Assembly: GCA_040222015.1 (NCBI GenBank)
Contig: JAVJWO010000193.1
Location: forward strand, 64,001-128,000
From: Coleofasciculus chthonoplastes F2-STO-03
GTDB lineage: Bacteria > Cyanobacteriota > Cyanobacteriia > Cyanobacteriales > Coleofasciculaceae
Direction: 5' to 3'
DNA length: 64,000 nucleotides
Within the stretch, counting starts at the first letter, position 1. Each line of letters begins with the position of its first letter. Below are positions 24,288-27,813 of the stretch, piece after piece. The notes under the pieces were generated by a model. The model was not told the origin of the DNA and did not search any database. It worked only from the letters and a program-made list of their open reading frames with translations. The position numbers and the translations under genes are program-made.

Positions 24288-25259
24288 TTACTCTTCCGTC
24301 GCTGACACAAACTCTTCTTCTTCAATCCCCTCTTCTTGAGATTCAGGATTAACGCCTTCTTGTTGTGCCAGCATCTTCTCCCGATACTTCTGAGCCATTT
24401 CTTCTGCCTTATCGTAGACTTGATCCCGATTGTTGATCATATCTCCCGGTTCAGGTTCCAACTGCTTTGTTGACAGCGAAATCCGACCGCGTTCGGCATC
24501 CAAGTCAATGATCATCACTTTCAATTCATCATTGACATTAAACACACTATGAGGCGTGTCAATATGATCATGAGAAATTTCCGAAATGTGGAGCAATCCG
24601 CTCACACCACCAATATCAATGAACGCACCGTAAGGCTTAATACCCCGTACTGAACCAACGACCACTTCACCAACTTCTAAACGGTTCATCTTGCGCTCAA
24701 CCAAAGCGCGACGGTGAGAGAGAACCAAACGGTTTCGGTCTTCGTCTACCTCTAAGAATTTCAGTGGCAGTTCTTCGCCAACTAAATCTTCTTTCGGTTT
24801 GCGAGTGCTAATGTGGGAACCGGGAATAAAACCTCGTAGCCCTTCAATGCGAACCAGCGCCCCACCTCGGTTTGTGGCAAAAACCAAAGAACGAACGGTC
24901 GCGTCTTCAGTTTGAAGCTGGCGCACCCGCTCCCAAGCCCGCATATACTCAATACGCCGAATGGAAAGGGTGAGTTGTCCATCTTCATTCTCGTCAGTCA
25001 AAATGAAAAATTCTCGCGTTTCATTTGACTGCAAAACTTCTTCGGGAGCGTCAACCCGATTAATTGACATCTCCTGTATGGGAATATAAGCGGCGGTTTT
25101 AGCACCAATGTCAATCAGAGCGCCTCTTGGCTCCAGACTGAATACTGTACCTGCGACAATATCACCAGGGCTAAAGTGATAATCATATTTGTCGAGGAGG
25201 GCGGCAAAATCGTCGTGAGTGAAGCCAATATCTATTGTATTTGTGTTCTGACTGAGCAT
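24288..25259 (-). CDS. rps1: 30S ribosomal protein S1
   Basis: IGFTHDDFAALLDKYDYHF and three S1 domains; ATG at 25259. Confidence 0.96.
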   Translation of the reverse strand: MLSQNTNTIDIGFTHDDFAALLDKYDYHFSPGDIVAGTVFSLEPRGALIDIGAKTAAYIPIQEMSINRVDAPEEVLQSNETREFFILTDENEDGQLTLSIRRIEYMRAWERVRQLQTEDATVRSLVFATNRGGALVRIEGLRGFIPGSHISTRKPKEDLVGEELPLKFLEVDEDRNRLVLSHRRALVERKMNRLEVGEVVVGSVRGIKPYGAFIDIGGVSGLLHISEISHDHIDTPHSVFNVNDELKVMIIDLDAERGRISLSTKQLEPEPGDMINNRDQVYDKAEEMAQKYREKMLAQQEGVNPESQEEGIEEEEFVSATEE

Positions 25260-25421
25260 GTGCGTTGTGTTTCCTTGTTTAATCTCCGTAATGACTATGC
25301 CTCCTGTCGATGTACTCGCACGTCGGTATTGTGCCACCTACACCTACATTGCTTTGTCTCAACCTAACCTTATTTTAAAAGATTTAATAAAGTCCAGACA
25401 GGTAATTATAACTCAATCTGG

Positions 25422-27130
25422 ATTACCGCTCATTCGTGTATGGACAAAACTACCCAAAGCTAGATAATTTGACCATATCGCATCCTAGCGGCTAGATGCT
25501 ATTGCCTGTTCAAAGTGCCTGACGGCTTGCCTCTGACTCGATCTGAGTTACAGACTCAATCAGAGGCTTGACCTTGAACTCCCAGTTAGAGACACTGTAG
25601 AAGTCATGGCGTGACATCCCAGTGAGGACTTTATTCAGTTGGTTGATCCCGCTCCATACGTGCTTACGCGGATTCACTCCGAGCAAGGCGGTTATGGAGC
25701 GGGGTAATCGTTCAGACAAATTCATGGCTCTACGTGCCAATACTAATGCGGCAGCTTCATCGCTCCCCATACCATACATTCGAGCATATTTCACCAAAGC
25801 TAAGAAGCTAGACCATGCTGGATTACGGCGAATGACTTCAATTCCTGCATTCCCACATTGCAACACTAATTGCTCTATAAATCGACTGTAGGCAAAGTTT
25901 GACAACATTCGAGAATACTTTTTACCACGCTCACGTAATTGTGTTTTTTTAGTGTTGAAGTCGAGATTCTCAAAGCAAATTGGCACTCCAAAGTACAAAG
26001 CCAGATTTACCAATGAATTGCAAACATCCGCAATAATGGCGATGGTTTGACCGCGCCGTTTAGAACTGACATCAAACGATAAACGTCCTTTAGTAACCAA
26101 ATTCCCGTCATGATCTACCGCAGCATAGCCAATAGATTTTGGATTGATGTCAATCCCAATACAACCATATTGCCGAGGTTTGGTGACTCGCTTCGGTACA
26201 CTCAGGTCAACTGTGACTGCCCAAAACCAGCGCAAATCCTTGGCGTAGAATCGGTGCGTCATTGCCACGCCGTAGCGGATTGGCGTTTGATATCCGGTCT
26301 TCTTATTCGTAGTGAATCCAGGCGTTGACAATGCTTGTTCTAGTTTGTTCTGACCATAAGGAAACGGATCAACCGAACATTCTAATATCTCACCATACTT
26401 TGTTTTTAGGCATTCTGGAACACGGAGCTTGAGGGTAGCACCATCGAATTGAAAAACCTGATTACCACAGGTTTCACCTTTGGAACCGAGAAAGAGGCAG
26501 TCAGGTTGTTTACTGATAGTGACTTGAATCGGAGCTGTTTTTAATGCTGATATTTGACTTTCTAGGTGCGTGATGTATCGCTTTTTGTGATGAATAGCAA
26601 ATCGCTTACTTTGCCATGAGGTTCTGTGCGTATCAAGGTAACAGAACAGTTTTAGATTTGTCGATTGTTTTTTGTTTTGCCACTTGCCAGAGTAATGCTT
26701 ACGAGAGTCTTTTAACGACTTTTCAGCCCTGCGTAACCAGTCTTTAGCCGATTTGAGCTTGCCTTCGAGTTGCTTAATGTGGTTGACATGGCATTTCTTA
26801 GCAGAGTCAATTTTCCCATCTGCATCTGCAATCACCGCGCCGGCTTGACGCTTGTTGATTTTGAAAGTCTGTTGAATTAGTGTGTTTAGCTTTGATTTGT
26901 TGCTGAAACCTTTAAGACGCTGATTGACAGTGAAGATCAAGGCAAACCGATAAACCTCGCTGTAATCAGCTATGAAATTTTGCACAATGACAGGCAATTG
27001 ATCGGTTGCGTAAGTCTTCATAACCATTCATTTTCTTGAGATAAATCATCCATAATGCTACCAAGTTAATGACTTACCTCAATATATAGACGTTCCGGGA
27101 GTTTTGTCTAGTTCTGGGTAGAAATTACCG
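25422..27130 (-). mobile_element. Non-autonomous IS607-like element carrying only tnpB
   Basis: ATTACCG direct repeat at 25422-25428 and 27124-27130; shared subterminal motifs (CTACCCA..CTAG, GACAAAACT) inverted at the two ends; sits between nrdR and rps1. Confidence 0.65.
25510..27027 (-). CDS. tnpB: TnpB-family RNA-guided endonuclease-like protein (505 aa, no zinc finger)
   Basis: RuvC-I CIGIDIN, RuvC-II ICFENLDF, LSNFAYSRF, NPAWSS, SDEAAALVLARR. Confidence 0.85.
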   Translation of the reverse strand: MVMKTYATDQLPVIVQNFIADYSEVYRFALIFTVNQRLKGFSNKSKLNTLIQQTFKINKRQAGAVIADADGKIDSAKKCHVNHIKQLEGKLKSAKDWLRRAEKSLKDSRKHYSGKWQNKKQSTNLKLFCYLDTHRTSWQSKRFAIHHKKRYITHLESQISALKTAPIQVTISKQPDCLFLGSKGETCGNQVFQFDGATLKLRVPECLKTKYGEILECSVDPFPYGQNKLEQALSTPGFTTNKKTGYQTPIRYGVAMTHRFYAKDLRWFWAVTVDLSVPKRVTKPRQYGCIGIDINPKSIGYAAVDHDGNLVTKGRLSFDVSSKRRGQTIAIIADVCNSLVNLALYFGVPICFENLDFNTKKTQLRERGKKYSRMLSNFAYSRFIEQLVLQCGNAGIEVIRRNPAWSSFLALVKYARMYGMGSDEAAALVLARRAMNLSERLPRSITALLGVNPRKHVWSGINQLNKVLTGMSRHDFYSVSNWEFKVKPLIESVTQIESEASRQAL

Positions 27131-27240
27131 AACAGCTTCTAACCCCTGTTGAGATCGAGAATTACACAAAACTTTATAAAGATAGATTATCCTAAATCGC
27201 GAACTGATCAAACTGCTGTCTGCTAAGGATTGGGCGTCCC

Positions 27241-27813
27241 TTACTGTAAAACCTGTTGCTCCTCTGAGGTGGGAATAACCAGGGAGGCTGATGTCTCCGA
27301 ATCATCAGACTCGTTGGGGATAGCGGGTGGTATAGGCGACATCCCTGGCTTGTCTAGTTCAGCATTATTTCTGAGATGCTCTAGGGTTTCGATAAAATCG
27401 CGAATGCCCTGAAACTTCCGATAAACTGAGGCAAACCGGACATACGCTACTTCACTCTCGTGTCGTAGGTAGCGCAGGACTAACTCACCCACTTCATCAC
27501 TGGTGACATCCCGCCCATAGTGCTGCTGAACTTCAGCTTCAATCTCATCGACTATCGCTTCTAGGCGTCGTTGGGAAACTCCTGTTTTCTCACAAGCTCG
27601 CACCATTCCCCGTAATAACTTAGAACGGTCGAAAGATTCTCGCTTACCATCCCGCTTCAGAACAGTAATCGGCACAAATTCAATCCGCTCATAAGTCGTG
27701 AAGCGATGTTTACAAAGCAAACACTCCCGACGACGCCGAACACTTTGTCCTGCTTCTGTTGAACGAGACTCCAAAACGCGGCTGTCGGTGTGCTGACAAT
27801 AGGGGCATCGCAT
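27241..27813 (-). CDS. nrdR: Transcriptional repressor NrdR
   Basis: MRCPYC...[11 protein letters not shown]...FTTYER, ATP cone, [10 protein letters not shown]. Confidence 0.97.

Follow-up and report, generated by a model that had tools for sequence, protein, structure and literature searches.

A strain-variable insertion of approximately 1.7 kb lies between two host genes of Coleofasciculus chthonoplastes F2-STO-03 that we take to be nrdR and rps1, names that come from a sequence-only reading of this DNA and from known motifs. Its sole gene is tnpB, which raises the question of what kind of mobile element this is, where exactly it begins and ends, and what its nuclease might recognize. Positions refer to the window, the stretch of 64,000 nucleotides that was analysed (Table 1); the focal genome is G000, and labels such as G000:C60 give genome and contig. 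We consider it probable (roughly 0.8) that the element derives from a cyanobacterial IS607-type transposon, is non-autonomous with tnpB as its only cargo, is mobilised by TnpA in trans and reinstated by TnpB, and shares its ends with IscB elements.

Table 1. Features of the nrdR-rps1 interval (window positions) and related cassettes.
Feature	Position	Strand	Evidence or remark
nrdR-like host gene	27241..27813	-	upstream flank; presumed name
Host target G run, left junction	27143..27146	-	empty alleles; 6 resolved sister insertions; G before GG in 27/27
Left end of element, starting TTAGAAGC, with CTACCCA (27121-27115) and CTAGACA (27111-27105) 10 nt apart	27085..27142	-	
Left CGGTAAT copy, internal, variable	27124..27130	-	empty alleles and sister copies
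Promoter-like site upstream of tnpB	27081..27110	-	weak, not above chance
tnpB, 505 aa, no zinc finger; D293 (26151-26149), E353 (25971-25969), D423 (25761-25759)	25510..27027	-	
Candidate omegaRNA scaffold, overlapping the tnpB 3' end and including hairpin 25499-25480	25426..25600	-	fold z, conservation, compensatory pairs
Right-end subterminal motifs at 15, 25 and 35, inverted relative to the left end	25440..25466	+	the G002 IscB element and the TnpA-bearing IS607 share 15 and 25
Right-end core GG	25426..25427	-	7/7 subfamily copies end GAGCGG, then unrelated flanks
Predicted guide (host flank)	25406..25425	-	predicted from IS607 TnpB geometry in the available part of 10.1101/2023.11.20.567912
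rps1-like host gene	24288..25337	-	downstream flank; presumed name
IscB + HEARO cassettes, antisense, on the same ends	L091:1651-3280 (G002:C40); G000:C1, C34, C57, C78, C101, C125, C167; L158, L162, L163, L199		

Alignment of the nrdR-rps1 interval in relatives, a check that the sequence-only reading had suggested, showed the insertion to be absent from all eight same-genus genomes searched, and an insertion-free joint was also present in metagenome contigs from two of the four sequencing runs examined. Inspection of the open reading frames of the interval revealed no tnpA, as had been noted. A second suggested check, a genome-wide search for further copies and for a trans-acting transposase, returned no other copy of the element in G000 and five IS607 TnpA genes, all above the NCBIfam NF033518 cut-off; beyond the single focal copy, nine contigs carry paralogs of the TnpB (34-55% identity). 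The close copies examined at the DNA level are mostly broken: truncation or a frameshift affects those of G003, L125, L126 and L127, and in run X1 the same insertion lacks 778 nt (window 26306-27083), the start codon included.

Several related sequences were seen along the way. Compared with the focal sequence, run X1 has no differences over 24900-26305 and 15 over 27084-27700, a pattern that may reflect recombination near the element. Fragments of the 5' part of the focal tnpB that have no recognisable left end (G000:C131:17694-17745; L027, L028, L030, L031) are fixed behind the same upstream gene in five same-genus genomes. A mini-element of ~130 bp (L029:1042-1169, on G004:C82) combines a focal-type end on each side with the scaffold's 3' half. 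G000 also contains a larger sister family with the right end TTTTTAGAAGCGG or a close variant (C20, C136, C82, C218, C12, C41, C75, C196, C18, C69), many members of which are truncated or located at contig ends; 11 of its loci were examined in G002.

The empty alleles define the insertion site. In all eight from the same genus, CAACAGGG is followed by C and then by flank starting near 25424, while the contigs of the two runs join 25424 to 27144 with one letter between. Together, these place the left junction within the host G run, ~15 nt (14-15) outward of the left CGGTAAT copy. The sequence-only reading had instead taken the two copies of this 7-mer as the ends, with crossover inside them and a TAM ending in (T)TCGG. 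The 7-mer does occur at both places (the second at 25422-25428), but the left copy is internal and unconserved, reading CGCTAAT in G017:C495, CGGTAGT in G004:C82 and TGYTAAT in the IscB-type ends, and CGGTAAT occurs 1,516 times in G000. Moreover, in all 10 empty alleles the joint is at the G run close to 27144, some 15 nt further out than the proposed empty site, and the outer 14-15 nt of the left end are conserved in other copies with unrelated flanks (G017:C495, the G004:C82 mini-element, IscB-type ends and many others). A crossover within the CGGTAAT copies is thus hardly credible.

For six sister insertions, both ends and an empty allele were available to resolve the junctions. Half of these insertions, from 11 G002 loci (three exact empty sites, one with a differing base before GG, and seven unresolved or diverged), are TnpB-type; the other three are IscB-type, two of which have their ends on separate contigs and were paired via the empty allele. 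In all six, the host retains the whole G run, one GG is shared and there is no duplication. GG is preceded by G at each of 27 distinct left junctions, contrary to a TAM ending in TCGG, and the next base is a purine in 23; at right junctions, the base after GG is T in 42 of 48. These junction patterns demanded GG plus a downstream motif, and left out G000:C11, G000:C69 and the G004 mini-element. The right end reads GAGCGG|T in all seven subfamily copies, in keeping with the right-hand GG that had been proposed. Whether the T after this GG belongs to the element was considered and rejected, as C or A is found at six of the 48 right junctions and T is present in empty alleles.

GG is present at both junctions and in the empty target, and the focal insertion has no target duplication, which upholds the suggested crossover at GG. 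The core GG is most likely 27144-27143, with a one-base ambiguity, and by the family junction rule the element would measure ~1,717 bp (27142..25426) with an interior of 27142..25428. At the focal locus, this rule implies a pre-insertion allele that differs from each of the 10 observed empty alleles in having one extra G and a T in place of C, which leaves a one-base uncertainty at the left junction (interior start 27142 or 27143). A start at 27143, which gives the left end an extra G, requires one substitution only relative to the orthologous empty alleles; against it, the whole G run stays in the host in the six resolved sister insertions. Because the left end lies in a G run, the predicted TAM is G-rich (RGGG) rather than TCGG, and its end is predicted to be G-rich under either choice of left junction. 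The target of the end family is RGG/G-T-like.

The insertion point lies 15 nt upstream of the TATAAT (25410-25405; window 25405-25425) that precedes rps1 and is conserved in 14 of 14 empty loci aligned, across genera. With the insertion at this distance, the putative -35 region is replaced and the -10 box is left.

Both ends carry the inverted subterminal motifs that had been described: CTACCCA at 27121 with its inverse at 25456, and GACAAAACT at 27108 with its inverse at 25451. Two or three motif copies 10 nt apart occur at both ends, compared with 53 of 200,000 random 50-nt genome windows, a contrast that exceeds chance but is inflated since the motif was defined after inspecting these ends. 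Counted from the terminus, the copies lie at 24 and 34 on the left and at 15, 25 and 35 on the right, as direct repeats that are inverted between the ends; left ends of the family have the motif at 24-25, the focal one additionally at 34. GG termini, (G)GG targets and phased subterminal motifs are features described for IS607 (PMC6188088, in the part available).

Of the five IS607 TnpA genes in G000, the copy on C60 is intact and at a contig end (211.7 bits, cut-off 110), and that on C25 directly precedes a paralog of the focal TnpB. In G002:C42 (L194), an intact 200-aa TnpA that is 97% identical to the C60 protein forms one element with a sister TnpB (frameshifted, 39-51% identity to the focal protein), and the matching empty site in G000 is exact. 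At the right end of this element the motif occupies positions 15 and 25, the same as in the focal one, and its left end is alike in layout only; similarly, the focal left end agrees with that of the C60 TnpA in layout and motif, and not closely in sequence. An autonomous IS607 carries a serine TnpA in cis, and since tnpB alone lies between the focal ends, we class the element as a non-autonomous derivative. The proposal of an IS607-type tnpB-only element is therefore borne out by the GG junctions, the phased motifs and the sister elements with serine TnpA. The same observations make it very improbable that this is an IS1341-like element moved by a Y1 (IS200/IS605) transposase. Such an element would have the same tnpB-only architecture, and many homologs of the focal protein bear the database label 'IS605 OrfB'; however, the GG core at both junctions, the G-rich target and phased repeats, and the serine TnpA in sister elements with the same motifs all point elsewhere, and IS200/IS605 elements insert downstream of AT-rich motifs, according to the available portion of PMC13565253.

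As far as the accessible text of the sources describes them, IS607 systems with RNA-guided TnpB (CboIStron, 10.1101/2023.11.20.567912; ISFba1, PMC11061315; IS607/IS1535, PMC6188088) share with the focal element the GG core, the lack of target duplication, the (G)GG target, phased subterminal motifs with an imperfect inverted repeat, a scaffold ending in CGG, and a G-rich TAM and right-flank guide, the last two being predicted here. The TAM is TGGG for CboTnpB (10.1101/2023.11.20.567912) and AGGAG or GAGGG for other IS607 TnpBs (PMC11061315) in those texts. Unlike these systems, the focal element has no cis tnpA, no intron and no RAGATH-18 or Rfam match, and its TnpB differs from that of ISFba1 in length (505 vs. 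387 aa), in lacking a zinc finger and in being similar at the level of fold only.

The 505-aa open reading frame is present as first described, and its translation contains GIDIN, FENL and SDEAAALVLARR motifs and no CxxC. The third RuvC motif, previously called atypical, is indeed unusual in context, but its Asp is kept. An AlphaFold model (pLDDT 84.5) matches AsCas12f best (Z 14.7, rmsd 4.2, 315 aligned), with further matches to Cas12k (Z 13.7), RuvC (Z 13.5), TnpB 8h1j (Z 12.3, rmsd 4.5, 276 aligned) and the IS607 ISFba1 TnpB (Z 10.7, 15% identity). The protein models as a TnpB/Cas12f-like fold with WED/REC and RuvC parts and a D-E-D triad, as the proposed RuvC/TnpB identity would lead one to expect. 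At the sequence level, TnpB family models stay below cut-off (NF040570, 42.3 vs. 100), a PDB sequence search gave no match for the protein, a profile search gave weak matches only, and a Pfam scan gave zero matches above cut-off. PADLOC reported weak Cas12f matches in four of seven proteins, the focal protein not among them.

The closest named relatives are from Coleofasciculus, and full-length homologs exist at 71-98% identity. The zinc-finger-less family is large (728 50%-clusters at E<1e-30), and no experimental study of this branch was found in the literature searched. Among 108 distant homologs (≥400 aa, from 147 new ones listed), the RuvC-III position is His in 78, Gly in 14, Asp in 10 and Ala in six. 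This resembles TnpB clade RIIIr-4, which lacks the C4 zinc finger, as does the focal TnpB, and has the RuvC-III Asp replaced by His (PMC10691335, in the part available). In contrast, the focal protein has D423, and close homologs retain the D-E-D triad (D293 in 107, E353 in 108 and D423 in 102 of 108). It is not filed as RIIIr-4 because the His is absent; judged by these alignments, it is an Asp-bearing offshoot of a mostly-His, RIIIr-4-like family.

The suggested closeness to Cas12n (type V-N/V-U4) found no support. The two are similar in length and share a D/E/D triad, but the focal TnpB has neither the CCCC zinc finger, which RdCas12n possesses together with an A-rich PAM (PMC12216341, available sections), nor a repeat array: no repeat family exceeded two copies among 20 of the 21 listed for 25200-27400, and the flanks are host genes. 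Cas12n did not appear among the profile and fold matches, drawn from libraries that may lack 9J09 and 9UDI, two structures with an unresolved nuclease lobe. Given the zinc finger of RdCas12n and the lack of a Cas12n match, the link is unsupported.

The folding of the right end agrees with the structured RNA that had been proposed there. None of 200 shuffles folded as well as the segment 25600-25426 (z = -4.2), and a consensus fold from five copies contains the hairpin starting at 25499, with five of 57 pairs compensatory and covariation weak. Conservation drops after 25425 in six aligned copies, a sharp boundary between scaffold and guide that agrees with the predicted guide start at 25425. 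Rfam gave no meaningful match on the focal locus, with no family over the scaffold and no RAGATH-18. In RNA run X3, available as contigs that cannot show expression, 268 nt of tnpB are matched exactly at depth 3, and the scaffold is left uncovered. A promoter scan upstream of tnpB found two sites, compared with 3.5 expected in shuffles.

The predicted guide reaches into the conserved TATAAT upstream of rps1, and this overlap could suggest a domesticated, TldR-like RNA-guided regulator of the rps1 promoter. However, every TnpB element takes its guide from the flank as a matter of course, the triad is intact, the element is absent from eight of eight relatives, and the filled site reads CGG where the target reads GGG, so we regard domestication as most improbable.

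For the IS607-derived, trans-mobilised element that we favour, the following course is proposed. The site of insertion would be a G-rich GG/T target that lies a short way upstream of the promoter region of rps1. An IS607 TnpA acting in trans, most plausibly the intact G000:C60 copy, would excise and reinsert it through the GG core. TnpB would bind an omegaRNA consisting of the right end plus flank and cut the empty site next to an RGGG-type TAM, with reinstatement by recombination; the filled right end, being CGG and not GGG, would spare the element from self-cutting. We infer the cutting, the guide RNA and the mobilisation in trans from the comparisons above. It is also conceivable, though unlikely, that an element of the same origin is now an inert relic, with an open reading frame that is intact by recency and with either no TnpA in this genome that recognises its diverged ends or a TnpB that no longer cuts. 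This would fit the single copy in the genome, the broken close copies, the scaffold left uncovered in the RNA run contigs and the D/G/A variation of the RuvC-III position in the neighbouring branch; it fits poorly with a triad conserved in more than 100 homologs, with the full-length homologs at 71-98% identity and with both ends and the RNA fold being intact. A still mobile element remains our preferred reading.

The same ends also enclose IscB. The focal left end has a ~83% match over 41 nt to ends located at the 3' end of antisense IscB genes, and IscB + HEARO cassettes in antisense orientation occur within IS607-type ends nearly identical to the focal ones, with GG-core empty sites. For example, the intact copy on G002:C40 encodes an IscB (NF040563, 452.7 bits vs. 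cut-off 175) with an upstream HEARO match that reaches 66.4 bits (E 1e-11) where the gathering score is 83, and the opposite end of this copy terminates in GAGCGG, as the focal right end does, with motifs at 15 and 25. Three of five genomes searched lack the insertion at the G002 IscB site and show an exact shared CC there; the other two gave no anchor. At least four such RNA-side ends with different flanks are present in G000. Ends related to these are found next to IscB genes in G111, G025 and G117 (families f32 and f2) and next to HEARO-like sequence in G023 and G016; IscB-enclosing ends span three cyanobacterial families, and the G025 IscB end is nearly the same as the end of a TnpA-bearing sister element. 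A scan of 76 loci, reaching ~1.5 kb to each side of the IscB or omegaRNA match, gave no IS607 TnpA hit, and no record of a plasmid collection covers 80% of the IscB element. L092 (G005:C51) is an IscB-type mini-element of ~370 bp with both ends. Since a clade of antisense IscB/HEARO cassettes uses the same ends, a single serine-transposase end family appears to carry either TnpB or IscB as exchangeable cargo.

The first helix of the IscB-associated RNA pairs columns 2-8 of the terminus. In nine related sequences, with a structure that we picked, 96.8% of cells are paired and two of seven pairs are changed on both sides; 12 of 500 shuffles scored as high, and slid controls reached 16-67%. The IscB-type scaffold seems to start at the transposon terminus itself, with the flank left as guide, and this speaks against the simple case of an ISC nested inside an IS607 mini-element. 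On the iscB strand, the termini are CCGCTCG... and ...TAA|CCC and the target is A|CCC; most other IscBs of G000 start with GTCAAC or TTCAAC. The IscB guide is predicted to be still host flank, and the 3' TAM to be C-rich (CCC-like), a mirror of the GGG TAM of TnpB.

In a tree of 50 IscBs, a clade of 22 (support 0.983) unites those with IS607 ends and a second class whose ends are also not IS605. This grouping suggests that IscB changed long ago from Y1 to serine transposition. The lone tip labelled as IS605-like in that clade, L115, takes its label from an end pattern and the label looks wrong. The second group in the clade (genus g13: L102, L104, L105, L109, L112, L114, L118, L119, L121, L123, L124, L182) has omegaRNA that starts close to CTCCTAGT and 3' ends close to TTCCTG; its ends belong to neither the canonical IS605 type nor the focal one. 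Three further IscBs (G000:C12:28391-29332, G000:C23:33042-33332 and L185) have upstream RNA that begins ATCCGCT...GGACA, like a reversed IS607 right end; they lie outside the main non-IS605 clade and possibly represent an independent switch.

Published ISC elements (IscB + HEARO; PMC4810608, PMC10055086) resemble this arrangement in that IscB and tnpB-only elements share ends, in opposite gene orientation and with no target duplication, all read as Y1-type in the accessible part of PMC4810608. Their ends are described there as IS200/IS605 (Y1) with GT|GG, GT|GA or N|ATGA targets, whereas the shared ends here are IS607-type; ISC membership is defined by IS605-like termini and targets, which the IscB sister elements do not have. 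A 2026 review lists IscB only in IS605 (PMC13565253, available portion). No report of IscB in IS607 ends was found in the literature searched, parts of papers included and the 2021 Science IscB paper and all supplements lying outside that search, and the available text of PMC9956272, PMC8987985 and PMC13180657 holds nothing further on the subject.

Overall, we think it rather likely that these sequences form a cyanobacterial IS607 end family with interchangeable cargo, either a zinc-finger-less TnpB in sense or IscB with a HEARO omegaRNA in antisense, in which the IscB versions are mobilised by a serine transposase, their first RNA helix has been rebuilt from the IS607 terminus, their 3' TAM is C-rich, and the change from Y1 to serine transposition is old. 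Such IscB cassettes would then count as IscB OMEGA elements that are moved by a serine transposase.

By itself, the focal element is an ordinary kind of transposon, now with a corrected left end and TAM. For a large family of TnpB proteins without a zinc finger, the locus supplies a TAM and a guide that can be tested, from an Asp-bearing branch whereas most relatives have His. An end family that carries both TnpB and IscB is new, as far as checks of partly available literature reach; what was found there ties IscB, the ancestor of Cas9, to Y1 transposases only, and non-autonomous elements of this kind would escape gene-neighbourhood surveys. If IscB on IS607 ends is true, either RNA-guided nuclease can pair with either scarless-excision transposase, the homing model is extended accordingly, and IscBs with C-rich TAMs are predicted.
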